Shown here: piece after piece, positions 3,445 through 58,185 of the stretch
How positions within the stretch are numbered: position 1 is the stretch's first letter
How the letters are laid out: each line of letters begins with the position of its first letter
NCBI GenBank assembly: GCA_003483855.1
Contig: DMXP01000006.1
Span: forward strand, 24,280-88,279
Reading direction: 5' to 3'
DNA: 64,000 nt
Source of the DNA: Candidatus Yonathbacteria bacterium
GTDB taxonomy: Bacteria > Patescibacteriota > Minisyncoccia > Phycocordibacterales > UBA1550
Notes under the pieces: model-generated
Told to the model about the DNA's origin: nothing
Database searches by the model: none
The model's input: only the letters and a program-made list of their open reading frames with translations
Made by a program: the position numbers and the translations under genes

Positions 3445-3539
3445 GGTTGATTTTCTTTGAGCGAAGCGAAGTTGAAAATCACCACCCGGTTAAATGACTT
3501 TTTATTAAAAGTCCCTGCTTTGCAGGATTTAACTGGGTA
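3445..3539 (-). promoter_or_regulatory. Conserved structured 5' leader element, copy A, immediately upstream of the gap start
   Basis: About 90% identical to 7037-7134. It has nested inverted repeats (cccRgttaaat...atttaactggg enclosing gactttttaYtaaaagtc and cctgctttgcagg). A second stem (ggtTgattttc/gaaaatcacc) abuts the ATG. Confidence 0.5.
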
Positions 3540-3610
3540 GACGACCCAACTTCGTACCACTCGTTATTTTAATGATTAAAACTATACTGTTATTTTACCA
3601 TACAGAACTA

Positions 3611-5062: not shown

Positions 5063-5293
5063 TTATTTCAACCAAAGATTTTGCGGAATACCAGATTGCG
5101 CAATAACTGATTTTAGTGTTCTGGGGTGAATCGATTTTTGCCCGTGATATTGAATATGCGTCTGTCTCACCTTTCCGCCATACGAACCAATGTAGTAAAA
5201 GTGGCTTCCGTGTGTATGAGAATGTTGAAATCCATACTCTTTTAAAAAATCGACTACGCCCTTAAATGTCCAGTTGTTGAGTCCGCGAGGCAT
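5063..5293 (-). CDS. hicA: HicA-like (YcfA) mRNA interferase toxin
   Basis: 76 aa; ...KGVVDFLKEYGF...GSHFYY...KVRQTH...HPRTLKSVIAQSGI fits the HicA/COG1724 pattern. Confidence 0.55.
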   Translation of the reverse strand: MPRGLNNWTFKGVVDFLKEYGFQHSHTHGSHFYYIGSYGGKVRQTHIQYHGQKSIHPRTLKSVIAQSGIPQNLWLK

Positions 5294-5299
5294 AGTTTC

Positions 5300-5701
5300 T
5301 TACGCAAATGCGAGATTAAATTTACCAGAACTTAGAACGTATGGGGATTTTGTCGAGCGTGTATTGCTTCTCTTGACATCACTTGCCTGCGCGCTCTCCC
5401 ACATTTTTTCATACTCAGAGTCAACCGTTTGATTGAGCACGTGGGGGCGCAATTTAGACTTACGCGCGGAGCCGAGGTAGCCAACGATAGCTTCATTTAG
5501 AAGGACGATGGCTTCAATCTGTGATGCACCCTCAACAACGACATTAAACTCAAGCGCCACCGCAAAAAAAGTATCTTTTTCCTTGAATACCACGTATCGC
5601 ACCGACCCTTTTTGTAGAGTATTTTTGAAAGATTTCATATGTTCATAATACCCTAGCGTGGGCACAAAGACAACTTCAATATCTTCGTACTGTACTGTCA
5701 C
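5300..5701 (-). CDS. hicB: HicB-like antitoxin (UPF0150 N-terminal domain), GTG start
   Basis: RYVVFKEKDTFFAVALEFNVVVEGASQIEAIVLLNEAIVGYL resembles the HicB N-domain. Lies directly upstream of hicA. Confidence 0.5.
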   Translation of the reverse strand: MTVQYEDIEVVFVPTLGYYEHMKSFKNTLQKGSVRYVVFKEKDTFFAVALEFNVVVEGASQIEAIVLLNEAIVGYLGSARKSKLRPHVLNQTVDSEYEKMWESAQASDVKRSNTRSTKSPYVLSSGKFNLAFA

Positions 5702-6055: not shown

Positions 6056-7036
6056 TCACACCACCTTCTTCAAAAGTTTCAAAAGTTCGTCTTGAAATAC
6101 TTTCATACATTTGTCGTCCAAAATCGTGATAGTAAACACTTCCGAATGTGGATAGGTTTTCTTCATTGCTACTTCCACTTCATTCACGTGCTCTGGAGTT
6201 ACCATATCTGTTTTGGTGAGAATAATTATCTCGTGCTTTGAAGCCAAGTCTTTATCAAATGCTTCAAGCTCTTTGCGTACAGTTTCGTACACTGCGAGTG
6301 GGTCTTCGTTTTCAAGCGACACCAAATGCGCGAGCATTTTGGTGCGCTTCACATGACGGAGGAATTTATGTCCAAGCCCTTTTCCTTCTGATGCGCCTTC
6401 AATGAGCCCTGGGATATCCGCAATGATAAATCCAAAACAATCGCCCAAGTTTGGCTCAAGTGTGGTGAACGCATAGTCAGCAGTCTTTGCGCTCGCGCGT
6501 GTGAGCGCGTTCAAAAGCGAAGATTTGCCCGCGTTTGGCAAACCCACGAGCCCTATGTCCGCAACAATCTGAAGCTCAACTTTGAAATCTGCTTCTTGCC
6601 CTTTCATTCCAGGCACGTGCTCTTTTGGTGTGCGATTGGTTGATGTCTTAAAATGCTCGTTGCCAAATCCTCCACGCCCTCCTTTTAATACCAAAATCTG
6701 CTGACCTTCATCTAGAAGCTGATACTCAGATCCAGTATCAAGATTCGTCACAATAGAACCAATAGGCAAATCCAAAATAAAATCATCGCCGTTTCTGCCG
6801 TGCAAACTGTCATTGCCACCGTCGCCTGCGCGCTCCGCGAAGAAATCTTTTTGATGGCGATACTTCACAAGGATATGCACGTCGCGAACAGCGCGGATAA
6901 TCATATCTCCGCCCTTTCCACCGTCACCGCCAGAAGGACCAGCAAATTCTTTGCCTTTCTCATGCTTAAGACGCATAACGCCGTTTCCGCCGTCGCCCGC
7001 CTTCATATGCATCGTCATTTCATCTATAAATGCCAT
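6056..7036 (-). CDS. obg: GTPase Obg/CgtA
   Basis: MAFIDEMTMHMKAGDGGNGVMRLKHEKGKEFAGPSGGDGGKGGD (Obg fold) plus G-domain motifs GLPNAGKSSL and DIPG. Confidence 0.9.
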   Translation of the reverse strand: MAFIDEMTMHMKAGDGGNGVMRLKHEKGKEFAGPSGGDGGKGGDMIIRAVRDVHILVKYRHQKDFFAERAGDGGNDSLHGRNGDDFILDLPIGSIVTNLDTGSEYQLLDEGQQILVLKGGRGGFGNEHFKTSTNRTPKEHVPGMKGQEADFKVELQIVADIGLVGLPNAGKSSLLNALTRASAKTADYAFTTLEPNLGDCFGFIIADIPGLIEGASEGKGLGHKFLRHVKRTKMLAHLVSLENEDPLAVYETVRKELEAFDKDLASKHEIIILTKTDMVTPEHVNEVEVAMKKTYPHSEVFTITILDDKCMKVFQDELLKLLKKVV

Positions 7037-7134
7037 GATTGATTTTCTTAATGAGCTTGCGAATTTAGAAAATCAATCACCCAGTTAAATGACTTTTTAC
7101 TAAAAGTCCCTGCTTTGCAGGATTTAACTGGGTA
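7037..7134 (-). promoter_or_regulatory. Conserved structured 5' leader element, copy B, immediately upstream of the obg start
   Basis: Same nested-palindrome element as 3445-3539. The perfect 11-bp stem gattgattttc/gaaaatcaatc abuts the ATG. Confidence 0.5.
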
Positions 7135-18196: not shown

Positions 18197-18841
18197 TTAG
18201 ACACCTGATGTCAATTTTACCTGCCTTGTAACTTCCTCAACAACGCTTTTAATGACACCCGTGACATTCTTATTTTTAAAATTATCAGCTATTTCCAGCG
18301 GTATCTTTTGGACTGAATCTACTGCGGACAATGCAACTACCCAGCTCATAATGTCTTGCTCTGGATAAACTTCTTGCCACCACGATATCCATGAACGAAC
18401 ATCTGCCTCTTTTGCAAGGCAAGCAAGGTCAAAGTAGTCTTTATACTCCTCTCTTCCACATACAGCAACAAGTTTCATTACGGTTATATCTTTGATGCCT
18501 GCAAAACGAAAGGAATCCGCTGGTTGTGGCGTTTCCAAAAGCGTGTCAAACCGAGATATGAATGATACTTTCACACCGTCAATCACGCACCACAACGTAT
18601 CCTTTGTTTCAAAAAGAATTTCCACGGTGGTTTTTGAAAAAATTTCAGCTAGCTTGTTTTTTAAAGCAAACGTTTCAATTGGTTTCGCTATAAAATAATC
18701 TAAGTCTACACTTTTGCGATGACCAAGCTGAAGCGCAAGCGCTGTTCCTCCTGCAAGGTAATACTCTGGATCAAGATTTTCAAATACAACACGCGAAACA
18801 GAACGCATTGCCTCAGTAATTGTTTCTTGATGAATGTTCAT
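18197..18841 (-). CDS. AbiEii/AbiGii-family nucleotidyltransferase toxin (DUF1814)
   Basis: N-terminal LAGGTALALQLGHRKSVDLDYF matches the GG[ST]AL...R.S.D[IL]D motifs of type IV TA AbiEii toxins. Confidence 0.6.
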   Translation of the reverse strand: MNIHQETITEAMRSVSRVVFENLDPEYYLAGGTALALQLGHRKSVDLDYFIAKPIETFALKNKLAEIFSKTTVEILFETKDTLWCVIDGVKVSFISRFDTLLETPQPADSFRFAGIKDITVMKLVAVCGREEYKDYFDLACLAKEADVRSWISWWQEVYPEQDIMSWVVALSAVDSVQKIPLEIADNFKNKNVTGVIKSVVEEVTRQVKLTSGV

Positions 18842-19077
18842 GACAAGAGAAAATTCTTGAAATAATAATATTTACGCTCTGGAATACTTGTTGGCTTCAT
18901 TGCTTCAAACACCTGCTTCACCCTAGTGACACCGTATTCTCGCATAGCATTCGCCAAAAGGCTGAGCCCGCCGTATGAGAGAATTCTCTGTATTACAAAA
19001 TCCGTCGGAAGCGAGTCGATGCTCGCATCGTTGATATCCCACAAGACTTTTTGAAGATCCTGCTTATTCATGTACAT
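18838..19077 (-). CDS. Small protein upstream of and overlapping AbiEii; putative cognate antitoxin, unclassified
   Basis: 79 aa with a 4-nt overlap onto the toxin gene. No recognisable domain by eye. Confidence 0.35.
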   Translation of the reverse strand: MYMNKQDLQKVLWDINDASIDSLPTDFVIQRILSYGGLSLLANAMREYGVTRVKQVFEAMKPTSIPERKYYYFKNFLLS

Positions 19078-19128
19078 TAATTATACCATAATTTGGTACT
19101 AATTTCCACACACGTTAGTAACCCCTCA

Positions 19129-19176
19129 CACCAATCCTACAATAAACAGCTATAGCTGTTTATTGTAGGATTGGTG
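19129..19176. repeat. Perfect 48-bp palindrome centred on TATA
   Basis: caccaatcctacaataaacagc-tata-gctgtttattgtaggattggtg. Confidence 0.85.
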
Positions 19177-19204
19177 AAAAGTAATCCTCATTCACTCCAG
19201 CCCA

Positions 19205-19324
19205 ATTCGTAACAATAGAACGCTATCTCCAAGTGAGCGAGCGAAGTGCAAACACGACGTTTGCGACTTCCGAGCGAACGCAGGAGATATTGTACCCAGT
19301 TATATAGCGTTCTATTGTTACGAA
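19205..19324. repeat. MITE-like / long-hairpin element with perfect 22-bp terminal inverted repeats
   Basis: attcgtaacaatagaacgctat ... atagcgttctattgttacgaat flank a 76-bp core. The core contains a further hairpin (gcaaac-acgac-gtttgc). Confidence 0.6.
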
Positions 19325-19463
19325 TGAGAAAAAAAAGAAAAACAAGGAATTTGCCTTAGTAAACGTCATTGCGAGGTACGAAGCAATCCAATAAACACGG
19401 CTCAAATACCGGATTGCTTCGAGTACTCGCAAGAACAGAGAGCGTGAGGGTTAGAATATATTC

Positions 19464-21419
19464 CTATAGAACCGCATCTTTTATTGGATATTCTTTTAGA
19501 ATCTTTTCCGCTTCTTTGCGTTTGCCGTTTGTCAGCAAAATCTGTAAGTAATACTTTTCCGCAGTCTCAAATTCTGGCGCAAGCTCAAACGCGCGTTTAA
19601 ATATCTCCTCAGATTTTGCTGTATCTTTCTTGCTGTAATACGCGCTAGCAAGCTCAAAAAGAATTGTTTGTTTCGTAGGTGAAAGTTCCACAGCTTTATT
19701 TAGGTACTCTATTCCTTTATCAATCTCGCCTGTCTTTACAAGATACGACCCTGCAAAAAGCTGGTATCTTGCGTCAGTTGGAAGACTCTCTGCTTGTTTT
19801 TCAAGCTCGCTTTTCGCCAAATCAATAAATTGTTTTTGCATCTCTGAAATGCCTTTTGAGGAATCAAAGGCTCCGGTTGAAAATGATGCGAGTTGTTCAC
19901 GAGCTTCCGCGGTTCCAAACGAATTATACGCAATAGTTCTTTTCATTAATTCCAAATTGTACACAGCGCCTCTTTCTGAACGCTCGGACAATGCTCGAAT
20001 GAGCGTTGTGTTTTGCATATAACCATTGTAGTTTACCGCGTAAACAAGAACGAGAGCGAGGACAACTACCCCGCCGGAAACGAATGTCGTCAGGTCTTCC
20101 TCCCCAACTTTAAATTTACTTTCAACTTTCAACGTTCCACTTTCTACTTGCGTGTGACACATACCCTCCACATACGCGAGGATTGTTCCAAAATAAATGA
20201 GCGAGGTAAGATTATCAAACACAAAAAGATTTTGGAAAAAATATCCGCCAAGGAGACCAGTGAGTACGCTTTTTTCTACAACCGACAGTTCGTCCGCACG
20301 ACGCCAGATGCAATATACAGCGCAAGCAAAAAGCGATATATACCCCAAAAGCCCGAGGATACCGCCTGCTATCAGCCAGTCAAAGAAAACATTGTGCGCG
20401 CGGTCAAACCACTGCTCCTGCCCCCACATATTTGGGTCATAATATTCATTGAATACATAATTAAAGTTCTCCATTCCCCACCCGAGAATTGGACGTTCTT
20501 TAAACCCTTCGTACGCCATCCCCCACACCATCACGCGCGCATTTTTAGAAAAATTGCTAATTGATATTTCTGAAAATCGTGCTAGGAGTGGCGTCTCTTT
20601 TACAAATGTTGTTTCTCGCGCTACGATAAATCCTCCGATAATTATCGCAATTGTGATCAGGGCTCCAATCGCCCACTTGCGTAGTGTTTTTCTCTGAGAC
20701 TCTAGCACAGCTATAAGTAGCGTTGCGAGACCAACACCAACCATAAGACCCAAAACTGCACCGCGAGTTCCTGTGTGATACAGAACGACTGCTTGCAAAA
20801 TGGCAATCGCGCTATAAATAAAAATTTTTGCACGTTGTCCAGCGTTAGTGAAACTCTCACGCATCATTAAAAATACAGCAATAAATATATTAAAGTATGC
20901 GTAAATACCAAGATATGAAGAATTGCCAAGAGAAGCGCTCACGCGGAAACCAACTGGGGAGCCGGGCAATTGCAGTAATGCGTAAATTGCCATAATGACA
21001 CCAACTCCCAGATGAAAGTTTAAATATTGACGCCATAGGTCACGCACCTTAAGCACGGTGGATGCAACTATGAAATATGCAAAGAGGTGAAAATAAGTGA
21101 CCACACCCTCCATGCGCTCAAAGTTTGACCAAAAGCTCTTTGTTGGATTCTCACCAAAAATTGCAGAGAGAGTAATAATTGCGAGAAATGCGCCTAGTGC
21201 TCCCAGAAGCCAGCTTCTGTTTGGACGATATGCTGGATCTATAAACGCGAGGACAATCCACGCGGAAAACATTATTTCAACAACAATACGGAACGCGAAG
21301 TTTTTTCCTACGATAAATGGGAAAAAGGTCGATTGACCCAAAACGATAAACGGGATAAAAGGCACCAAAATAAACCCCGTTAAAACCACCGCATTTGCTA
21401 AAATCTTGTGTAAATTCAT
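19464..21419 (-). CDS. O-antigen ligase/polymerase-like polytopic membrane protein with C-terminal TPR repeats
   Basis: About 12 TM helices with a Wzy_C-like loop region, then TPR-like repeats (…YLNKAVELSPTKQ…AFELAPEFETAEKYY…). 651 aa. Confidence 0.6.
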   Translation of the reverse strand: MNLHKILANAVVLTGFILVPFIPFIVLGQSTFFPFIVGKNFAFRIVVEIMFSAWIVLAFIDPAYRPNRSWLLGALGAFLAIITLSAIFGENPTKSFWSNFERMEGVVTYFHLFAYFIVASTVLKVRDLWRQYLNFHLGVGVIMAIYALLQLPGSPVGFRVSASLGNSSYLGIYAYFNIFIAVFLMMRESFTNAGQRAKIFIYSAIAILQAVVLYHTGTRGAVLGLMVGVGLATLLIAVLESQRKTLRKWAIGALITIAIIIGGFIVARETTFVKETPLLARFSEISISNFSKNARVMVWGMAYEGFKERPILGWGMENFNYVFNEYYDPNMWGQEQWFDRAHNVFFDWLIAGGILGLLGYISLFACAVYCIWRRADELSVVEKSVLTGLLGGYFFQNLFVFDNLTSLIYFGTILAYVEGMCHTQVESGTLKVESKFKVGEEDLTTFVSGGVVVLALVLVYAVNYNGYMQNTTLIRALSERSERGAVYNLELMKRTIAYNSFGTAEAREQLASFSTGAFDSSKGISEMQKQFIDLAKSELEKQAESLPTDARYQLFAGSYLVKTGEIDKGIEYLNKAVELSPTKQTILFELASAYYSKKDTAKSEEIFKRAFELAPEFETAEKYYLQILLTNGKRKEAEKILKEYPIKDAVL

Positions 21420-21425
21420 AGTGTC
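21382..21425. repeat. 44-bp direct repeat, copy 1 (includes the authentic start of the 19464-21419 gene)
   Basis: aaaaccaccgcatttgctaaaatcttgtgtaaattcataRtgtc is repeated at 22054-22097 with 1 mismatch. Confidence 0.85.
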
Positions 21426-21433
21426 TCAGTTGT

Positions 21434-21766
21434 CTAATTGCTGATTATTTCAACAATTTTTCTAATAATTTCTTTTGTTTTCCTTTCCTTCACATTTCCA
21501 ACCTTATACAAAATTAGACCTTTATCAGCAGTAAAAATTCTGTTTGGCCTTATGTTGCTATCCACCAAAAGATTGCCTTTTGCAAAATCAGTTCTCAGTA
21601 ATGAAATTGAGTATTTATCTTTTACAGTTTTACTGGTTATCTGACAAAGAATAACATCATCACCCTTGAGTCTGCTGACAACAAAAGCTGGCCTCTTTTT
21701 TATACTAGACAAATCAGAAAAAGGAAACGGGATAACCACAATGTCCCCTTTTATAAATTCTTCCAT
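21434..21766 (-). CDS. MazF/PemK-family endoribonuclease toxin
   Basis: GDIVVIPFPFSDLSSIKKRPAFVVS matches the MazF/PemK N-terminal signature; 110 aa. Confidence 0.7.
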   Translation of the reverse strand: MEEFIKGDIVVIPFPFSDLSSIKKRPAFVVSRLKGDDVILCQITSKTVKDKYSISLLRTDFAKGNLLVDSNIRPNRIFTADKGLILYKVGNVKERKTKEIIRKIVEIISN

Positions 21767-21987
21767 GTTTTTTCTTCCACTAGTTTAAGCCAGTCCTTAG
21801 CCAAACTGGACTCGCTGATAGTGGTTGAAAAAGCTAAATTTGTTTTTGGGGTATTTTTTTTTGTGTTTTTAGAATTTAACTTTTCTAAATTTTTTGTGAT
21901 TTTTTCATAAATACCTAAAGGCAAAAGCATCATCGGCTTGCCACCAATAATTATTCTGGAGCTTGATTTTAGAGCTAAATGATTCAT
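21751..21987 (-). CDS. Putative antitoxin of the MazF-like toxin (AbrB/MazE-like?)
   Basis: Overlaps the toxin start by 16 nt. LKSSSRIIIGGKPMMLLPLGIYEKI suggests a swapped-hairpin fold. Start set at the internal Met; the ORF could extend to 22050. Confidence 0.4.
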   Translation of the reverse strand: MNHLALKSSSRIIIGGKPMMLLPLGIYEKITKNLEKLNSKNTKKNTPKTNLAFSTTISESSLAKDWLKLVEEKTWKNL

Positions 21988-22053
21988 TTCTACATTATAG
22001 TGTAGTCTTATGGATAAGTAAACAAGGGCTCGGTTGTTGATATTTGCCACATC

Positions 22054-22097
22054 AAAACCACCGCATTTGCTAAAATCTTGTGTAAATTCATAATGTC
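22054..22097. repeat. 44-bp direct repeat, copy 2 (orphan duplicate of the membrane-gene 5' end, upstream of the TA cassette)
   Basis: Identical to 21382-21425 apart from 1 mismatch. It creates the spurious ORF 22008-22238, which begins MNLHKILANAVVL like the real gene. Confidence 0.85.
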
Positions 22098-22210
22098 ACT
22101 ATATAACTTGGTACAATATATTCTACACTCGCTCGGAAATACAAATCGCATGTTTGTATTTCTCTCACTCGTTTGAATATCGTACCATAAATTAATTGGA
22201 ATGATGAATT

Positions 22211-22879
22211 CTACTCGCGATATTCTTTCAATAGCCAAGAACTCGACTGTACTTTCCCCCCACCGACATTAAAGACCATTTCTACGCCAAGCTCTTTACA
22301 TATTTTTGCCTCTGGAATATCCGCTTCCGCTTTTCGATCACCACCATTTGCAAACACTTGTGGACGAATCTTTTCAATTGCCTCTCCCACATCATTGCGG
22401 TCACTTTCTAAAATGAAAACATCGTCAACACAACTAAATCCTCGTATAATCCCAGCACGTTCTTCTTGATTCATAAAATTCTTTCCTTTCTTGCGAATTA
22501 ACCACTTGTCACAATTAAGCACAACGACCAATTTGTCGCCAAGATTCTTTGCTTCCTCAAACATTTGAAGATGACCAATATGAACAGGGTCAAAGCCTCC
22601 ACTCACCATCACTACACGCTTTGCTGTCTCGCGACCGTAGTCGTCTTCGTAGCGAATAATGTCGTTCTCTTGTGGTTTACCATAAACAAACTCTAGGTAA
22701 GCGCCAGGCAGTAGTCGATGTTTTTGCATCGGTTCTACTTTATAAAAACCAAAATGCCATTCTGTGCGCTGGCTGTGCGACTGAAGGCTAGTGCGTCCGC
22801 GGACAAGGATAAACTTGAGCCATGTATGTTTAGTGTTGAAAAGCTTCCACATCGCCCCCCATGGTCTTACTATTTTCAT
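22211..22879 (-). CDS. Cupin domain fused to a cytidylyl/adenylyltransferase domain (RfaE domain II / TagD-like)
   Basis: N-terminal RPWG..W......KF..V..G..SLQSHSQRTE (cupin). C-terminal VMVSGGFDPVHIGHLQMFEEAK (HxGH nucleotidyltransferase). Confidence 0.6.
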   Translation of the reverse strand: MKIVRPWGAMWKLFNTKHTWLKFILVRGRTSLQSHSQRTEWHFGFYKVEPMQKHRLLPGAYLEFVYGKPQENDIIRYEDDYGRETAKRVVMVSGGFDPVHIGHLQMFEEAKNLGDKLVVVLNCDKWLIRKKGKNFMNQEERAGIIRGFSCVDDVFILESDRNDVGEAIEKIRPQVFANGGDRKAEADIPEAKICKELGVEMVFNVGGGKVQSSSWLLKEYRE

Positions 22880-49181: not shown

Positions 49182-49483
49182 AATTTTAATAGTATAGCAC
49201 TACAAGTCCATAAAAAGACAGGCGACGAAGTCCGCGAAGGACAATTTTTTCATACAAAATCAGCAATGACACAATGCGAGGAGAATGTTGAATGTTGAAT
49301 GGGTGAGGAAGGGTGTTATTGCATACTACGGCATCTTTAATTTTGGGTATTCAAAACCACAAATTCTGTCAAATTTACGGTTTTGGAAACCATAAATTCC
49401 GCTAATTCCCCTAAATAGGTAGATTTACGGGAGTACCGCTCCCCGAAATTGACAAAATGTGGGGAGTTTGCTATCATAAAACT

Positions 49484-50617
49484 ATGAAGATCCCAAGAAT
49501 ATACAACAATATAGAAAAATATCTTCACCCGAACAAGGTTCTGGTTATTTTTGGCCCGCGACGAGTGGGCAAAACAACTCTCATTACTGATTTCCTTTCA
49601 ACATATAAAGGAAAATATCGCTTAGAGTCTGGGGATGACATTCGAGCGCGGGAGATCCTTGGTTCAGAAGACCTTTCTTTGCTAAAAGAATACGCAACGG
49701 GATACGACCTCATTGTCATCGACGAAGCGCAACGCATACCCAAGATCGGCTGGGGGCTAAAGTTGCTTGTTGACCATGTTCCGGGGATTCGTATCATCGC
49801 AACAGGATCATCATCGTTTGAACTTGCTGGACAAGTTGGAGAACCGCTTACCGGACGCAAACACACAATGACACTCTTCCCTCTTTCAGAAATTGAGCTA
49901 CTCGCCTATTATAACAACAATTCGTATGACCTTTCTTCAAAGCTTGCCGAGCGACTTGTGTTCGGTGGCTATCCAGAAGTTATTTCTGCAAAAAATACAC
50001 TTGAGCGAAAAGATGCTCTCGGTGAAATCGTCGGGTCGTATCTTCTCAAAGATATCATGGAGTTGGACCGTGTTCGCAATACAAAGATATTGAGTAACCT
50101 TGTTCGTCTCATTGCTTTTCAAATTGGAAACGAGGTTTCGTTGACCGAAATCGCGACAACCCTTGGCATAGACAGAAAAACGGTTGCTCGGTATATTGAC
50201 TTGCTTGAAAAATCCTTCATCCTCTACAATCTTCGTGGCTTTAGCCGTAACCTAAGAAAGGAAGTGACCAAAAAAAGCAAATATTACTTTTACGACATTG
50301 GTGTCCGTAATGCCATTATTTCAAACTTCAACAATCTTTCTGAGCGTGATGATGTGGGAGCGTTATGGGAAAATTTTTTAGTTATTGAGCGACTTAAAAC
50401 ACGCGTTTACAAAAACATCTCCGCGAATGACTACTTTTGGCGCACATGGGACCAAAACGAGGTTGACTTCGTTGAGGAACGCGAAGGAAAACTTTTTGGC
50501 TATGAATTTAAGTGGAAAAAGGCAAAAGCAAAAGAGCCAAAAAATTGGCGCGGAACATACCCGGAAGCAACTTACGGGGTGATCACTCCAGAAAATTATC
50601 TCCAAATATTAGAGTAG
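49484..50617 (+). CDS. AAA+ ATPase with DUF4143 (COG1373 family)
   Basis: Walker A FGPRRVGKTT and Walker B LIVIDEAQ, with a C-terminal DUF4143-like region. Start moved to MKIPRIY; the ORF could start at 49457. Confidence 0.65.
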   Translation: MKIPRIYNNIEKYLHPNKVLVIFGPRRVGKTTLITDFLSTYKGKYRLESGDDIRAREILGSEDLSLLKEYATGYDLIVIDEAQRIPKIGWGLKLLVDHVPGIRIIATGSSSFELAGQVGEPLTGRKHTMTLFPLSEIELLAYYNNNSYDLSSKLAERLVFGGYPEVISAKNTLERKDALGEIVGSYLLKDIMELDRVRNTKILSNLVRLIAFQIGNEVSLTEIATTLGIDRKTVARYIDLLEKSFILYNLRGFSRNLRKEVTKKSKYYFYDIGVRNAIISNFNNLSERDDVGALWENFLVIERLKTRVYKNISANDYFWRTWDQNEVDFVEEREGKLFGYEFKWKKAKAKEPKNWRGTYPEATYGVITPENYLQILE

Positions 50618-50733
50618 ATTGGAACAAAAACCCAACCATAATTGGAATGATTACGAGTGCCCATCTCAAATATGTTACATTACGCACGCCTATTGAAACA
50701 ACAAAAACGCTGGTATATGTATGGCAAACGTCT

Positions 50734-50801
50734 CCTTAAACCCTAAAGTCAAAAAGGCCGTTGAATACTTTTCCTTTCATTGCTTTGGCGATGAGAGACC
50801 A
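50734..50801. repeat. 68-bp direct repeat, copy 1 (orphan duplicate of the GT4 gene 3' end)
   Basis: ccttaaaccctaaagtcaaaaaggccgttgaatacttttcctttcattgctttggcgatgagMgacca is repeated at 51807-51874 with 1 mismatch. Confidence 0.85.
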
Positions 50802-50868
50802 GTTTATAAACTTTATAAACTATTGATTTTTTGACTAAGTTTATTAACTTTGATAAAATACGCTCATA

Positions 50869-51795
50869 ATGACAGTCCAGGAAAAATTAAAGATAATACA
50901 GAGAAATACTGGCTTGAGCCAAACAGAACTTAGCAAAAAACTCGGTGTGTCTCACGTTTCCTTTAGCAAGTGGTGGAATGGGCATACTTTGCCAAGGGGA
51001 AAATCCATTCTCTTGATAGACTCTCTTTATTTGGAAGTTACTGGTCAAAAAATTATTCCAAAGGATTACTTAACTGCTAAAAAGCAGGATCTTCTCAATT
51101 ATTCAAAAAAACATGGTGATATTATTAAAGAAATTATTTCTACCCCTGATATTAGAGATCAGTTTATGTTGAAACTCACCTATCATTCAAACAGCATAGA
51201 GGGTAGTACTCTTACAGAAAATGATACTGCAGCGATTCTTTTTGATAACGTGGCTCTGCCAAACAAGACACTTGTAGAGCAACTTGAAGCCAAGAACCAC
51301 CAAACAACGCTTTTGTATCTTTTTAATCATCTCGCTAAAAAGGGTGCTATTGATGAAGGTTTGATATTAAAACTGCACAGCATATTGATGAACGGTATTT
51401 ATGATGATGCTGGATTTTACCGTAGGCACGGTGTCCGTATTGTAGGAGCGAACATGCCAACAGCAAATTACTTGAAAGTTCCGGAGTTAATGAAGGATTT
51501 AGCGCGAAATATCAAAAAAGAAAAGGCGGATGCCGTGGCTCACGCATCTATAATTCACAGTATTTTTGAGAAAATTCATCCTTTTCCAGACGGTAACGGG
51601 CGAATTGGCAGATTGCTTATGATTGCAATGCTTTTGAAAGTCAATTTTGCCCCAGCTGTAATACACCAAGAAAATAAACGACTTTATTATACATACTTGA
51701 ATAGAGCGCAGACCAAAAATGACACTAGTCAATTGGAAGATTTTGTGTGTGACGCCATACTAGACGGATTTGAAATTTTAGAGAGAAAAATTTGA
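50869..51795 (+). CDS. Fic/Doc-family protein with N-terminal XRE-type HTH
   Basis: N-terminal ...LSQTELSKKLGVSHVSFSKW... (HTH). Fic motif HPFPDGNGRIGRLL. Confidence 0.8.
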   Translation: MTVQEKLKIIQRNTGLSQTELSKKLGVSHVSFSKWWNGHTLPRGKSILLIDSLYLEVTGQKIIPKDYLTAKKQDLLNYSKKHGDIIKEIISTPDIRDQFMLKLTYHSNSIEGSTLTENDTAAILFDNVALPNKTLVEQLEAKNHQTTLLYLFNHLAKKGAIDEGLILKLHSILMNGIYDDAGFYRRHGVRIVGANMPTANYLKVPELMKDLARNIKKEKADAVAHASIIHSIFEKIHPFPDGNGRIGRLLMIAMLLKVNFAPAVIHQENKRLYYTYLNRAQTKNDTSQLEDFVCDAILDGFEILERKI

Positions 51796-51806
51796 GGGAA
51801 CTAGAG

Positions 51807-51874
51807 CCTTAAACCCTAAAGTCAAAAAGGCCGTTGAATACTTTTCCTTTCATTGCTTTGGCGATGAGCGACCA
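51807..51874. repeat. 68-bp direct repeat, copy 2 (the authentic 3' end and stop of the GT4 gene)
   Basis: See copy 1. On the minus strand it encodes ...WSLIAKAMKGKVFNGLFDFRV*. Confidence 0.85.
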
Positions 51875-53064
51875 ATCGTATTTTTCGGCGACCAAGGTGC
51901 GTCCGTTTATGAATAGGCGGTTGCGGAGCGCTGGGTCGTCTATGAGGCGCTTTATTTGACGCGCGATGCTTTCTGGACTGTTTATATCCGCAAAAAGGCC
52001 AGTTGGCTCGTGATCTGGATTTTTGTCAGGATCAAAAAGGAAATCTGGGATACCTCCAACAGGTGTCGCAATAACGGGAATACCAGCCGCCATTGCCTCC
52101 AAAAATGAATTCCCATGTCCCTCCGAGCGCGAAGGTCTAATAAAAATATCAGACACCTTGAGATATTTTGGCATATCCTCGTGATGCACCTGACCGAGAA
52201 ATTGAACGCAATAATCATCAACGCCTTTTTCGCGAGCAAGGTTGCGAAGCATTTCCTCGTCGGGTCCTATGCCAAGAATTAAAAATTTAACATTGTGCGG
52301 AAGAAACACGAGCGCGCGAATTACCTCATCAACCGCATTTTTTGCAACCATACGCGACGTAGTAATTAGAAATATGTCGCCTGGATTCTTTCCAAGACTG
52401 TATTTCAATATTGAAAGCTCGTTCTCATAATATTCCTTTGCAAAGTGCTCCACGTTCACCGCATTTGGCACGACCTCGAGCGGTCCCACATATCCCATAT
52501 TGCGAGCGAACCCTGCAAGGTAGTTCGAAATAGTTTGAATGAAGTCCGCTCGCGCAAAAACTCGCTGTAGAAGCGGAAACGCAAACTGCAAGCGGTGTTT
52601 GATATATTCTATAGGGTCCCCCTCTTGAAGCGTAAGCAAAAAACGAACGTTTGGATTTCGCATTTTGAAAAAGAGCGCCGAGAAACCCGCATAATTTGCC
52701 ATCATTGCCCAAATGCCGTCATAGGCGTTTTTTTGTGAAGCGACTGCGCTTTTAGAAAACCCCAAATAGGAAAAAAATATTTATTGACTGAAAGTGGAAA
52801 ACGCGACAGGTCTGCAATATTTGGGTCCTTTGTTGCAAACCCTACGCGATGAACGTTCACGTTTCCTATTCGCTCAAACTTTGGGAGCGTTGAATCAAAA
52901 CGGAGCGTTACCATATCAAACACATAATCATCTCCCGAGGTTCGGTCAGTAATCTCTTTTATCGCCACCTCGGCTCCCGCAACTACATCAGGATAATACG
53001 CAAGGGAAAATATGAGTATTCGTTTCACTGATATAAGTTTATATAGAAATACCGCAAAAAACAA
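51809..53064 (-). pseudogene. GT4-family glycosyltransferase interrupted by a frameshift in an A7 (plus-strand T7) homopolymer at 52728-52734
   Basis: The N-terminal GT4 domain ORF (52702-53064, ...ILIFSLAYYPDVVAGAEVAIKEI...) and the C-terminal ORF (51809-52765, ...EGHGNSFLEAMAAGIPVIATPVGG...) overlap in different frames. One extra A (A8) would fuse them as ...SLHKKNAYDGIW.... Confidence 0.6.
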
Positions 53065-53070
53065 GCCGAG

Positions 53071-53340
53071 TTATTCAAAAAGGTCAGAGCGTGTTCCTGT
53101 GCGCACAAGGATGATATCATCGTCATCGTATTTCCAAATCAAGAGCAAGTCAAATTCTATATGACATTCCCAGCACCCTTCGTATTCCCCATGTAACTTG
53201 TGAAGTTTTGATGCTAAAGGAACATTTTTACCGAGACGAAGGCATTCGATCATCTCATAAAGCACCGCCACATCACGATTGTGGCGCACAATGCGTTTTA
53301 GATCACGATTAAATATTCCCGAAGGAAAAATCTTTCTCAT
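53071..53340 (-). CDS. yafQ: YafQ-family (RelE/ParE superfamily) toxin
   Basis: ...HKLHGEYEGCWECHIEFDLLLIWKYDDDDIILVRTGTRSDLF aligns with E. coli YafQ ...HPLQGSWKGYRDAHVEPDWILIYK...RTGTHAALF. The ATG overlaps the dinJ stop (ATGA). Confidence 0.65.
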   Translation of the reverse strand: MRKIFPSGIFNRDLKRIVRHNRDVAVLYEMIECLRLGKNVPLASKLHKLHGEYEGCWECHIEFDLLLIWKYDDDDIILVRTGTRSDLFE

Positions 53341-53621
53341 ACATGTGCGCGCCAATTCTTACCGAGTATATCAGTAAACATTGCTTCAGCTGAAGAATAT
53401 GATTTGAGATTTTCCCCAGACTTAGCATTTGCAATCGCTTTGCGCGTTTCGGCGTTTGGAATATTAAGAGAAAAAGGGATTCCTTTGTCGGTGGCAATAC
53501 GGCGATAAAATACATTGATAGCTTCAGACGGAGATATTCCTATTTTATGCAATACTGTTTCAGCCTTTTTTTTAACCGAAGGTTCTATACGAGCTCTCAC
53601 AAAAGATGTTTTTGTAGTCAT
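53337..53621 (-). CDS. dinJ: DinJ/RelB-family antitoxin
   Basis: MTTKTSFVRARIEPSVKKKAETVLHKIGISPSEAINVFYRRIATDKGIPFSL matches DinJ ...FVRARIDEDLK...ALPFDL. Start moved to the internal Met. Confidence 0.65.
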   Translation of the reverse strand: MTTKTSFVRARIEPSVKKKAETVLHKIGISPSEAINVFYRRIATDKGIPFSLNIPNAETRKAIANAKSGENLKSYSSAEAMFTDILGKNWRAHV

Positions 53622-53674
53622 ATGAGTATTGTAGCACATTTGTGCCACAATGCAAGAATTGAAATACGTGCGAA

Positions 53675-55223: not shown

Positions 55224-57173
55224 CTAATCGTCTCCGCGAAGGATTGCCGTCAGCACATCCTCGGGGACTTCGCGAGGTTTTGGAGGTTGTTCTTCACGTC
55301 TCGAATCAGCTGATTCTGAACCAGCAGGCTTCACGCCTTGGGCGAAGACTCTTGGACGTAGACTTGATTGCTCTTGGGCTACTGGAGGTGCCTTTGGCGT
55401 CGCGGTTGGTTTCTCAATTTCGCTGTCTAAAATCCCCGCTAAAGCAGCCTTGAGACCGCCTAAACTCTCTTTGGATGGGCCTTTGCTCCTTACTGGTGGA
55501 ATAGCGCCTTTTTGAGAATGACGGCTCTGTGTAAGAGTAGAAAGGCTCATTCTCTCTTCCTTGGGCTTGGGCTCCTGTGGCGCTGGTTTTTGGAAATCTT
55601 TAAATGCTTGAGCGAATGGCTTTTCAAATTTCTCAGGAGGTTTTGAATTTTCTTTTCGCGCAGGTCGCTCAAACATAGCACTGCTATCCCTTTGCACCAC
55701 AGGAGCTCGTTGGGTACTCTCCGCACGCGGTGCAGGGCGCTCGCGCGCTGGTTCTGGAGCCGGCGCTTCCATTCCTGTTCCATACCATTCGGTAATACTT
55801 TTCTCCACTTCCGCGCGTGTGTGTCCGTACAATTCTCGCGAGAACTTAATCACTTCTTCGCGAAGCGATTTTTTTGGTGGGGCAATCGGACCTAATGTTA
55901 CAGATGAAAATGGATGCGAAGCAACACCGTCAATCATGAGCTTGAGATACATTTGATATTTTCCAAGACTCACCATATCCTCTGCGGTAAAAACAGGGGC
56001 GTATTCTTTTTCCAAAACTTCTGCGTCTGGAGCGCCAACGCGAAACATAATCTGCGTACCGACATTTCCAAAAACTGCATCAGCGACTTTTTCATCCATC
56101 TGCTTGATATATTGGTGAGCAATAGTGAGCGCGAGTTTGTACTTGCGAGCTTCGGACAAAATATCGGCAAATGATTCGTTTGCGAACGATTGAAACTCGT
56201 CCACGTACATATAAAAGTTGGGAAGCCTTTTGAGTTCACCTTCGGTCAAGTCCGCGCGCGACATTGCGGCGAGGTAAATTTTTGTAATAATCATTCCACC
56301 CAAAAGAGCGGCGTTTCCTTCACCGAGTTGCCCTTTGGAAAGGTTCACAATGAGAATTTTCCGCTCGTCCATCATTTTTCGCAAATCAAAACTTGATTTC
56401 GGTTGCCCGATAATATTTCGAATGAGCGGGTTTGATGTGAATTGTCCGAGTTTGTTTTGAATTCCCGGTACTGCTTCTTTTGCATAGTTCTCGCTGTACT
56501 TTGCAAATTCATCAACCCAATACGCTTTTACCGATGGGTCCTTCACATTGTCGACGATTTTTTTCCTATACGCCTTGTCAGTAAGCATTCTGCTAACGCC
56601 GAGAAGCGTTGATTCAGGATATTCAAGGAGTGCGAGGAGCGCGTTCATCATAATATACTCCATACGCGAAGAAAAAGTTTCTGGTCCCCAAATCTTTTTA
56701 AATGCAGACATGAGTCCGTTTGCAATGAGGTGTCGCTTGTCTGGCCCTACGTCCTCCATCACATTGAAGGAAATCGGATTGTCTGTATCAAACGGCGCAA
56801 AGTAGACGACGTCTTTTAATCTCTCCGGTGGAATGTAGTCGAGAAGGAGCGCAGCTGATTTCCCGTGTGGATCTATAAATGCGATACCCTCGCCGTTTTT
56901 AATGTCCTGCACCACCATGTTTTCAATACACGTAGACTTGCCCATGCCCGTCTTGCCTATGATGTACATATGACGCGTGCGGTCTTCGGCTTTTATCCCA
57001 AATGGAACACGCTTGTTCCTGCGGTCTGTCTCCGCAAAGTACGTGATGCGATTTTTATCGTAGAGATACATAGTGTAGTTGGTAGTCACTAGTTTGTAGT
57101 GAATAGTGAGCACATAAAGTATATCACCAAACATAAACAAAAGAGAAACACGGGGGCGATGGGCAAAGCCCAT
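55224..57173 (-). CDS. TraD/VirD4/TrwB-like type IV coupling-protein family ATPase (DNA-translocating P-loop NTPase) with disordered Pro/Lys-rich C-terminus
   Basis: Walker A IIGKTGMGKST...FIDPHG, Walker B MYVDEFQSF, ...IAHQY.... Possible N-terminal TM (LLFMFGDILYVLTIHY). An alternative start lies at 57071. Confidence 0.5.
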   Translation of the reverse strand: MGFAHRPRVSLLFMFGDILYVLTIHYKLVTTNYTMYLYDKNRITYFAETDRRNKRVPFGIKAEDRTRHMYIIGKTGMGKSTCIENMVVQDIKNGEGIAFIDPHGKSAALLLDYIPPERLKDVVYFAPFDTDNPISFNVMEDVGPDKRHLIANGLMSAFKKIWGPETFSSRMEYIMMNALLALLEYPESTLLGVSRMLTDKAYRKKIVDNVKDPSVKAYWVDEFAKYSENYAKEAVPGIQNKLGQFTSNPLIRNIIGQPKSSFDLRKMMDERKILIVNLSKGQLGEGNAALLGGMIITKIYLAAMSRADLTEGELKRLPNFYMYVDEFQSFANESFADILSEARKYKLALTIAHQYIKQMDEKVADAVFGNVGTQIMFRVGAPDAEVLEKEYAPVFTAEDMVSLGKYQMYLKLMIDGVASHPFSSVTLGPIAPPKKSLREEVIKFSRELYGHTRAEVEKSITEWYGTGMEAPAPEPARERPAPRAESTQRAPVVQRDSSAMFERPARKENSKPPEKFEKPFAQAFKDFQKPAPQEPKPKEERMSLSTLTQSRHSQKGAIPPVRSKGPSKESLGGLKAALAGILDSEIEKPTATPKAPPVAQEQSSLRPRVFAQGVKPAGSESADSRREEQPPKPREVPEDVLTAILRGDD

Positions 57174-57186
57174 CGCCCCCGTGTTT

Positions 57187-58185
57187 TTATTTCACCTTCT
57201 TCTTATTAAGCATCATGAGAATAAGCCCAACCATTTTGTCTTTGTGCGTGGGGTCGCTCTCAGCAACTAGAAGTGTGATTGCCGTGAGTGCTGGCGGTGT
57301 GATACGCGTCGTATCAAGAACTTTTGCTTTTGCGAGGAACCACACGAAAGCATACGCGCCACTCCGTTTGTTGCCATCAATGAACGGATGATTTTTGATA
57401 ACGAAGTATAAGAAATGCGCCGCCTTCTCCTCGACGGTTGGGTACATATCTTTACCACCAAATGCTTGCGCGACATTACCAATGATCCCCGCGAGGCTTC
57501 CTCGCTCGCGCTCAGTCGCAAAAAGGTCAGTAGCTTCGCCTTTCGCAATGAGTGATTCTTTCAAAGTATCAAGCGCACCACCAAACATATCTGCGGTAAT
57601 TTTGACAGATTTTTTTGTCGCGCCTTTCGTCATCAGAGCATCTTTGTCGTACGCATCAAGTGAGAGCCATGTGTCAGAGAAAAGCGTGATGAGCTCAAGA
57701 ATACTCTCGGTGTCCATAGCTGTTCCAGCAGAAAGTAGCGCCTTCACATCAGCGACAGCTTTCAAAAAACCATCATAGTTTTTAGCAATGCGTGACTTGT
57801 TTATGGTGTAGCCATCAACAATATGCGCGCGGAGTGTTTTGGTTGCCCACTGGCGAAACTGAGTGGCAGTCTTTGAGTTGACTCTGTAGCCAACAGAGAG
57901 GATTGCGTCTAGGTTATAGTACTCGATAATACGTTCTACTTTACGTTTTCCTTCAGTTTGAACTGTTGCATTTTTTGCAACAGTTGACCTCGTGTCAAGT
58001 TCACCCTCTTGGTAGATATTTTTAAGATGGCGTGAGACAACAGACTTATCACGTCCAAAAACCTCAGCGATTTGATCGAGCGTCGCCCACACCGTCTCCC
58101 TACCAAAATCCCCACGAAGCTCAATAGCTCCCGACTTTGCCTGGTAGATAACGACTTCCTTTTTTATTTTTTGCAGTTTCATCAT
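57187..58185 (-). CDS. RhuM-family N-domain fused to a Fic/Doc domain
   Basis: ...IEYYNLDAILSVGYRVNSKTATQFRQWATKTL (RhuM) and HPFIDGNKRSGAYAF (Fic/Doc motif). Confidence 0.7.
   Translation of the reverse strand: MMKLQKIKKEVVIYQAKSGAIELRGDFGRETVWATLDQIAEVFGRDKSVVSRHLKNIYQEGELDTRSTVAKNATVQTEGKRKVERIIEYYNLDAILSVGYRVNSKTATQFRQWATKTLRAHIVDGYTINKSRIAKNYDGFLKAVADVKALLSAGTAMDTESILELITLFSDTWLSLDAYDKDALMTKGATKKSVKITADMFGGALDTLKESLIAKGEATDLFATERERGSLAGIIGNVAQAFGGKDMYPTVEEKAAHFLYFVIKNHPFIDGNKRSGAYAFVWFLAKAKVLDTTRITPPALTAITLLVAESDPTHKDKMVGLILMMLNKKKVK

Follow-up and report, generated by a model that had tools for sequence, protein, structure and literature searches.

Some integrative elements target gene ends, SXT for example the 5' end of prfC, and cis-mobilizable elements (CIMEs) are non-autonomous units flanked by attachment (att) repeats. 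Chromosomal integron cassettes are compact units of one or two genes, often toxin-antitoxin (TA) pairs with their own promoter. A further mode of entry, insertion with long target duplication, was described for restriction-modification (RM) gene units (Nobusato et al. 2000, Gene 259:99; Furuta, Abe and Kobayashi 2010, NAR 38:2428, PMC2853133); the units were recognized as inserts of <20 kb that are absent from a related genome, lack mobility genes, and lie between variable repeats of >30 bp matching a single-copy target (PMC2853133). The repeats of an example from H. influenzae measure 46 bp and overlap the 3' ends of genes; amplification of such units via their flanking repeats was shown experimentally, and their release to invade other cells was proposed without experiment (PMC2853133). 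A later paper speaks of "RM systems and other DNAs" (PMC3457768). Here we describe this anatomy for a MazEF-type TA cassette at the 5' end of a wzy gene in a 64,000-nt stretch of Candidatus Yonathbacteria DNA (GenBank contig DMXP01000006.1, positions 24,280 to 88,279; hereafter the window, numbered from its first letter). We consider it likely that the cassette was inserted with long target duplication in an ancestor and was thereafter inherited vertically, its flanking repeats being re-homogenized. The genes of this region are all on the minus strand, and its features are as follows.

21382-21425, minus strand: downstream (functional) repeat copy, 6 nt plus the first 38 nt of intact wzy, starting 14 nt past the toxin stop codon
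22054-22097, minus strand: upstream (orphan) repeat copy, 6 nt of leader followed by nucleotides 1-38 of wzy, still on the native promoter
19464-21419, minus strand: target gene wzy, encoding a 651-aa membrane protein with Wzy_C (O-antigen ligase/polymerase-like) and TPR parts (Pfam Wzy_C 2.1e-20, plus TPR families)
21434-21766, minus strand: MazF/PemK-family toxin, 110 aa (Pfam PF02452 1.7e-10, residues 6-107 of 110)
21751-21987, minus strand: antitoxin candidate, 78 aa (from the listing of open reading frames (ORFs); JGI gene calls also give 78 aa)
21994-22022, minus strand: predicted promoter of the cassette (TTTACT, 17 nt, TATAAT), with TATAAT ending 6 nt before the antitoxin ATG
22098-22210, minus strand: putative native wzy promoter region, with a TATGGTACGAT motif at 22179-22189, a hairpin, and TATATA at 22100-22105
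22211-22879, minus strand: cytidylyltransferase-like gene, upstream neighbor and left anchor of the ancestral site (Pfam CTP_transf_like 1.8e-14)

The 44-mer occurs exactly twice in the window, with 43 of 44 positions identical and a single G/A mismatch. None of 100 dinucleotide-preserving shuffles of the window gave any 44-mer match, and the local-alignment score of the TA-cassette flanks was 41.5 compared to a shuffled maximum of 12.5, confirming that the repeat is real and beyond chance; weak similarity outside the 44-mer lengthens it to 51 nt (21375/22047). The wzy ATG (21419-21417) lies inside the downstream copy. The ATG of the orphan copy (22091-22089) opens a 27-codon dead-end ORF that stops at 22008, within the listed ORF 22008-22238. 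The original prediction, made from the letters alone, had claimed near-identical 44-bp direct repeats at these positions, one copy being the true start of the O-antigen-ligase-like gene and the other an orphan within ORF 22008-22238, and all three points agree with these results. Exceptional nucleotide conservation of the wzy 5' end was rejected as a cause of the repeat: codon identity among orthologues, which occur throughout Parcubacteria, was 0.60-0.66 for the first 20 wzy codons compared to roughly 0.37-0.61 for later windows of 10 codons, a merely mild excess.

The 628-nt insert between the repeats contains only the TA genes. The antitoxin ORF, which is 78 aa long if begun at the ATG at 21987 and 99 aa long if begun at a GTG at 22050, lies upstream of the toxin gene and overlaps it by 16 nt; no Pfam family matched the antitoxin candidate in the Pfam scan. 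A promoter scan scored the cassette promoter at 10/12 matches. The insert is best explained as a self-contained type II TA cassette running from its own putative promoter through the antitoxin gene to the toxin stop codon. As in type II systems of the MazEF/PemIK kind, a PemK/MazF domain is combined with a small, co-inherited antitoxin gene immediately upstream in the same operon, and the pair is complete and oriented like wzy, as had been predicted. The toxin is a predicted mRNA interferase that would be neutralized by the antitoxin.

The empty site was found in relatives that lack the cassette (loci fetched from other genomes are labeled with L-numbers). In L019 (Wzy 73% identical), the cytidylyltransferase stop codon is followed by 84 nt containing TATGGTACGATAGTGGCACT and then by the wzy ATG. 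The motif TATG[GT]TA[CT]GAT lies 19-20 nt before the wzy ATG in L019, L021, L025, L027, L029, and L032, and its -10-like hexamer ends about 9 nt before that ATG, from which we infer a leaderless or nearly leaderless transcript; by this spacing alone the region would be the native wzy promoter. In the window, a second -10-like sequence (TATATA, 22100-22105) lies 8 nt before the orphan ATG, with the hairpin between it and TATGGTACGAT, and the orphan copy still stands behind the homologous promoter context (GTTATATAGTGACATT directly before ATG). The alignment of the window with L021 and L019 continues through the promoter region into the orphan copy, and virtual recombination of the two repeats gave a sequence collinear with both relatives, in each of which the wzy 5' target is single-copy. 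The upstream copy thus marks the ancestral position, and the gene copy was displaced by the insert. The cassette had been proposed to sit between a promoter and its gene, with repeats duplicating the gene's 5' end, and an empty site was expected to show the promoter joined directly to the gene; this is the arrangement found in L019.

Toxin homologues of 64-95% identity are widespread in Patescibacteria and beyond, with thousands annotated as PemK/MazF, and the TA pair is conserved in L008, L014, L158, L162, and L165. The last three place it in unrelated contexts: L165 between rplB and rpsS, L162 in another ribosomal-protein cluster, and L158 elsewhere. In the alignments, conservation of the cassette begins at the -35 element (TTTACT, 17 nt, TATAAT, 6 nt, ATG) and ends at the toxin stop codon, and no wzy-like sequence accompanies the homologous cassettes in other contexts; the repeat is therefore duplicated target rather than element-borne. 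The proposal that integration regenerates the start of the target gene was correct in that the gene is intact, and incorrect insofar as the start would have come from a copy carried by the element. The toxins encoded at L165:2741-3333 and L162:2780-3333 are 75-77% identical to that of the window and are co-oriented within ribosomal-protein operons of other Patescibacteria. In the antitoxin of L165 the N-terminus differs, being of the ribbon-helix-helix (RHH) type, and the C-terminal motif (SESSL.KDWL) is that of the window antitoxin.

Strain variants with and without the cassette could in principle have been stitched together through the shared 44-mer during assembly. Short contigs of three assemblies end at one position, about 21268, which shows strain heterogeneity near the locus, and one assembly with k=31 contains the second cassette of the window (see below) as a unitig of 1071 bp. 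However, the region is found with 100% identity, both repeat copies included, in at least five separate groundwater-metagenome assemblies from different assemblers (MEGAHIT k127 and k141, the scaffolded ANAN16 assembly, and JGI). Both copies are covered by several short contigs, and a 44-nt repeat, being shorter than k127/k141, cannot misdirect the corresponding graphs. The gene order is also shared, with diverged repeats, by sister and cousin lineages that come from other sites. An assembly artefact, including a collapsed bubble, is therefore rejected as vanishingly improbable on this comparison of contigs, rather than reads.

Searching species-representative genomes with the Wzy protein yielded 80 loci. 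In this comparison, the TA pair was confined to the window, to L008-L013 plus L018 (Wzy 92-93%), and to L014, L015, and L024 (Wzy 79%). Identity to the window is 96% for the toxin and 90% for the antitoxin in the L008 group, and 84% and 56%, respectively, in L014 and L024; L008 and L014 share the cassette right-end sequence AATAATTAATAATTAA(A)CTTTA. The cassette of L008 and L018 is at the same place as in the window, between 43-nt repeats that are 86% identical (37/43 in L008), and in L014 the cassette is present with the same right end, but the repeat is no longer detectable. Since the cassette is common to lineages at 93% and 79% Wzy identity, insertion predates those splits; judged from this distribution, it is not recent, and the cassette has probably been inherited vertically since the ancestor of at least three Yonathbacteria-like lineages. 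The toxin dN/dS (nonsynonymous over synonymous divergence) was 0.045 in comparison with L008 and 0.11 with L014, with dS of the same order as for wzy, values from which the toxin is seen to be under purifying selection and which indicate maintained function. The corresponding antitoxin ratios were 0.57 and 0.36.

Retention of the orphan copy for a function of its own, as a leader peptide or as a translation-initiation module coupling wzy-promoter activity to cassette expression, would fit the somewhat raised codon identity of the first 20 wzy codons, and the orphan and gene copies are still 86-98% identical despite a divergence expected to change neutral sites much more. Nevertheless, the orphan ATG is ACG in the sister lineage (L008/L018), so the orphan peptide is not conserved, the copy is unrecognizable in L014, and the cassette has its own strong predicted promoter in all contexts. 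We regard this explanation as very improbable.

The gene copy of the window contains the codons TTAGCAAAT and the leader GACACT, as do the orphan copies of the window and L008, whereas the gene copies of L008, L014, L016, L019, and L032 contain TTGGCGAAT, and the wzy ATG is preceded by AACGAG in L008 and AACGGG in L014. The 43/44 identity is thus probably the product of secondary homogenization, most economically read as a gene-conversion tract of at least -6 to +24 with the orphan copy as donor. The gene copy of L020 also has TTAGCAAAT, so the polarity of such a conversion is not certain.

A second unit of similar build lies in the same window.

50734-51874, plus strand: Fic unit, comprising cassette 50802-51806 and the helix-turn-helix (HTH)-Fic gene 50869-51795 (Pfam Fic 1.1e-19, plus HTH)

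The 1005-nt insert, with the Fic gene as its only gene, lies between two 68-nt repeats, the orphan at 50734-50801 and its counterpart at 51807-51874, which match at 67 of 68 positions. The counterpart is the real 3' end of a group-1 glycosyltransferase gene (51809-52765, minus strand). The empty site (…GGGTTTAAGGAGACGTT…) is found in L124, whose glycosyltransferase is 96% identical; virtual excision from the window gives a sequence that aligns with this site gap-free across the junction, and the target is single-copy there. Among other relatives of this glycosyltransferase, L102 (97%) has Fic and L103 and L104 (94%) are without it. Fic homologues of 80-89% identity occur in other glycan clusters, the copy in L176 being 9 nt upstream of a Wzy_C-TPR gene, and the cassette borders are conserved from an operator/promoter block to the stop codon. 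The Fic cassette of L175 lies between 92-nt repeats (85% identity) that are derived from the 3' end of a 46-aa ORF by duplication and have no sequence relation to the 68-nt repeats of the window. One cassette at two targets, with repeats of different sequence and length, argues against a fixed attachment site; a search for flanking repeats around the Fic homologues of L171 and L176 found none. The 1071-bp contig, from Logan, was rejected as evidence for a circular form of the Fic cassette, as this length is expected for a k=31 unitig between collapsed repeats. The glycosyltransferase beside Fic consists in the window of two overlapping ORFs (52702-53064 and 51809-52765; span 51809-53064) and in L103 of a single ORF of 413 aa, so that the window gene may be frameshifted or inactivated.

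Both targets have been hit repeatedly. At the wzy 5' end, L032 has a MerR-type gene and a 91-aa gene between two diverged promoter-plus-ATG copies, and L016 and L017 have an island of roughly 2.9 kb bounded by an orphan wzy 5' copy, a remnant of one gene of L016 being present in the wzy-upstream island of L014. In two distant relatives, L020 and L036, the place exactly between wzy promoter and ATG is occupied by an element of about 120 nt with inverted ends CCCGTTAGAGAC…GTCTCTAACGGG. The wzy-site duplications differ in offset (0 to +45, about -40 to +6, and about -15 to +50). The 3' end of the glycosyltransferase gene was the target in L103 (also L104), of the sister lineage, which has an AAA_14/DUF4143 gene between perfect 259-nt repeats (L103:4833-5091 and 6506-6764) starting 5 nt from the Fic duplication border, each made up of the last roughly 47 nt of the glycosyltransferase, an element of roughly 200 nt with 16-nt inverted ends (CCTATCTCCAATCTCG), and GGGTTTAGGGAGACG; the arrangement is a second, nested long target duplication at the Fic site of the window. 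The original prediction had likened the wzy cassette to the HTH-Fic cassette at 50.7-51.9 kb and suggested a shared mechanism or hotspot; the two do have the same anatomy, Fic with its own empty site in L124, and insertions recur at the same two sites, but a common sequence signal was not found. The 120-nt element (L020:25-143; in L036 before position 3588) is flanked by ATGAAT/ATGAAC, and its left part also occurs at L032:2724-2800; the right ends of the TA cassettes of L014 (AACGGG directly before ATG) and L008 (AACGAG directly before ATG) resemble its right end. The AAA_14 segment of L103 is 96.5% identical to that of the window, compared to about 90% for neighboring genes.

The best explanation of these results is that the insertion was neither site-specific recombination nor classical transposition. 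In the history that we consider likely, the TA cassette would have entered the first roughly 45 nt of a wzy-like gene in an ancestor, and the target would have been duplicated in the process. The upstream copy would have stayed on the native promoter (about 10 nt from the ATG, apparently leaderless) and become a dead-end mini-ORF, and the downstream copy would have kept wzy intact. Transcription of wzy may now proceed by read-through from the native and cassette promoters, with translation presumably starting 14 nt past the toxin stop codon; the antitoxin gene also appears to be leaderless. Our best guess for the joining chemistry is that the host joined the incoming cassette at a break whose staggered ends lay 45-90 nt from each other and were then filled in, and selection would keep only those events whose duplicated stretch spans a gene terminus. 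Later, in the genome of the window, the gene copy would have been converted to the orphan sequence, making the repeats look young.

Several observations weigh against this history. Synonymous divergence from L008 is uneven, with a dS of 0.10 for the antitoxin and 0.50 for the toxin, so inter-lineage recombination has also shaped the locus, and re-acquisition of the cassette might have taken the place of gene conversion. A rival explanation is Campbell-type entry, in which a circle containing the cassette and one repeat copy came from another strain and crossed over at the 45-nt homology, leaving a young repeat around a cassette family that is old at the site. The repeat match of 43/44 in the window compared to 86% in the sister lineage is in keeping with this route, as is the greater closeness of the antitoxin/orphan part than of the toxin to the sister lineage, and repeat-mediated amplification has been shown experimentally for RM units (PMC2853133). 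On the other hand, a single crossover cannot make both copies orphan-type throughout, except in a recipient that carried this sequence beforehand, a RecA-dependent crossover would have only a short homology of 45 nt to work with, and both the first insertion and the presence of the Fic cassette at a new target would be left unexplained. We consider Campbell-type entry unlikely.

Further difficulties concern the ends of the units. The Fic (window) and AAA_14 (L103) duplications of the glycosyltransferase 3' end, two independent events, have both borders in common to within about 5 nt, and on the Fic coding strand GTCTC abuts the duplication border in both Fic events, as CGTCTC immediately before CTTAAACCC in the window and GGTCTC immediately before TTGTTAGTG in L175 (positions 50729-50734 and 50795-50800 in the window and L175:3337-3342; the other border in the window follows GAGACCA). 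Near-coincident borders together with GTCTC hint at a site preference that a purely random break does not predict. GTCTC/GAGAC is found near some duplication borders and may be a weak target motif, but the frequency of these hexamers in the window is as expected, so that their adjacency may be chance; selection for duplications that span gene ends may explain much of the site clustering in tiny, gene-dense genomes. Flanking repeats accompany only 2 of 7 TA or defense-like cassettes in the window (MazEF and HTH-Fic), and those around the others (HicAB, AbiE, YafQ-RelB, RhuM-Fic, and AAA_14) did not rise above shuffled controls. Nor were flanking repeats found around the three TA homologues in other contexts (L158, L162, and L165), L162 having only paralogous pilin-like gene blocks.

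These features bear on whether the repeats could be the attL and attR of a small non-autonomous element of the CIME or integrative and mobilizable element (IME) type, moved by a tyrosine or serine recombinase whose gene lies at another place in the genome, with an attP carrying the wzy 5' end. Such elements typically have direct repeats that restore the end of a gene, and the multiple hits across lineages at both gene ends (wzy 5', glycosyltransferase 3'), the closely shared borders of the two glycosyltransferase-site events, and the GTCTC beside the border in both Fic events would all suit one. No integrase, resolvase, or transposase was found among the window ORFs scanned (Pfam and precomputed hits), a scan that covered the 64 kb of the window and in which some ORFs gave no Pfam match. 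Moreover, one and the same Fic cassette has unrelated repeats at two targets, TA and Fic homologues elsewhere end exactly at the promoter and stop codon and share neither an att-like arm nor wzy-like sequence, and the offsets of the wzy-site duplications differ. An att element is thus quite improbable. In the window, no tRNA genes were detected, and Rfam gave no hit at gathering score, only palindrome-driven microRNA noise at 19126-19181.

A more speculative idea, to which we give little credence, is that Patescibacteria possess a dedicated insertion system for minimal, promoter-to-stop addiction or defense cassettes (MazEF, HTH-Fic, AAA_14/DUF4143, and MerR-type). A trans-acting enzyme would introduce two nicks 45-260 nt apart, possibly guided by GTCTC, with a preference for the termini of surface-glycan genes, and the long target duplications that result would keep the target gene alive. 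If true, such a system would be a new class of mobile gene cassette and would provide a mechanistic handle on long-target-duplication insertions, first described in 2000.

The glycan cluster of the window contains many addiction- or defense-type units, including HicA/HicB-like, DUF6922/AbiEii, YafQ/RelB, RhuM-Fic, and AAA_14/DUF4143 genes, plus a TrwB/TraG-like coupling-protein ATPase (5063-5701, 18197-19077, about 53070-53640, 57187-58185, 49457-50617, and 55224-57173). The spacer past wzy (19078-19463) measures 386 nt in the window and 92 nt in the sister lineage. It holds a perfect 48-nt palindrome (19129-19176), a 22-nt inverted repeat (19205-19226/19304-19325), and, at 19268-19307, an inverted copy (85%) of the 40-mer 22099-22138 that lies just upstream of the orphan repeat; both copies of this 40-mer are preceded by a hairpin, and the stems differ by compensatory changes. 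Elsewhere, a 57-nt repeat with 96% identity occurs at 3483-3539, upstream of a gap gene, and at 7078-7134, upstream of obg. Its predicted fold is Y-shaped, with an outer stem around two hairpins (z-scores -5 to -7); it had no Rfam match and was absent from the other loci fetched.

Compared to known systems, the cassette shares features with several. Like CIMEs and SXT-like elements, the insert is flanked by direct repeats of which one restores the target terminus, with no recombinase inside the unit. It differs in that no recombinase was found among the window ORFs scanned, the repeat is entirely target-derived, and no common att core exists, the short GTCTC being the sole feature shared by the Fic repeats of 68 nt (glycosyltransferase 3' end) and 92 nt. 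Integron TA cassettes resemble it in being compact, having their own promoter and sharp borders, and being widely spread between genomes. Conservation among cassette copies ends at the stop codon, and thus, as judged from the alignments, no conserved attC-like palindrome follows it; IntI and attI were likewise not found in the window. Furthermore, unlike integron cassettes, the window insertion is inside a coding region with target duplication and is not part of a cassette array. Insertion sequences, transposons, and miniature inverted-repeat transposable elements are a poor match as well: the TA-cassette ends lack terminal inverted repeats, and the duplications are variable at 44-92 nt rather than short and fixed in length.

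The gene content is that of chromosomal MazEF/PemIK modules, with a PemK/MazF domain, a small, overlapping antitoxin gene upstream, a promoter immediately before it, and a modular antitoxin of conserved C-terminal and variable N-terminal parts. Here, however, the antitoxin has no Pfam family.

The closest known phenomenon is the insertion with long target duplication, which is a known but rarely described kind of event to which the TA insertion would belong. As with the RM units, no mobility gene is present, the insert (628 nt for TA and 1005 nt for Fic) is absent in a relative (empty sites L019 and L124, respectively), and the repeats (44-45, 68, and 92 nt) exceed 30 bp, derive from a single-copy target, and vary between events; in both cases the repeats often overlap the end of a neighboring gene, and the cargo is of an addiction type. 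A limited literature search returned no description of type II TA or Fic cassettes with this mode of insertion, which falls short of proving that none exists. Differences include the cargo, here a MazEF-type TA pair with parallels in an HTH-Fic gene and an AAA_14 ATPase gene instead of the RM pair used as a screening criterion; the host, here from Patescibacteria (candidate phyla radiation, CPR); the repeated hits at the same two sites; and the duplication of the 5' end of an apparently leaderless gene, which was displaced from its promoter. The locus illustrates that tiny, gene-dense genomes can accept addiction cassettes within genes and yet keep those genes, and it calls for caution in dating insertions, since repeat copies can be re-homogenized and near-identical flanking repeats are thus not proof of a recent event. 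Long target duplication has so far been documented almost only for RM systems, whose own cutting of DNA is one proposed cause, whereas the same anatomy is found here with cargo that does not cut DNA, a predicted RNase toxin pair and a Fic enzyme. Together with the CPR host, the clean empty sites, the nested recurrent events, and the presence of Fic at two targets, this cargo points to a host-side or general process rather than a restriction-driven one.

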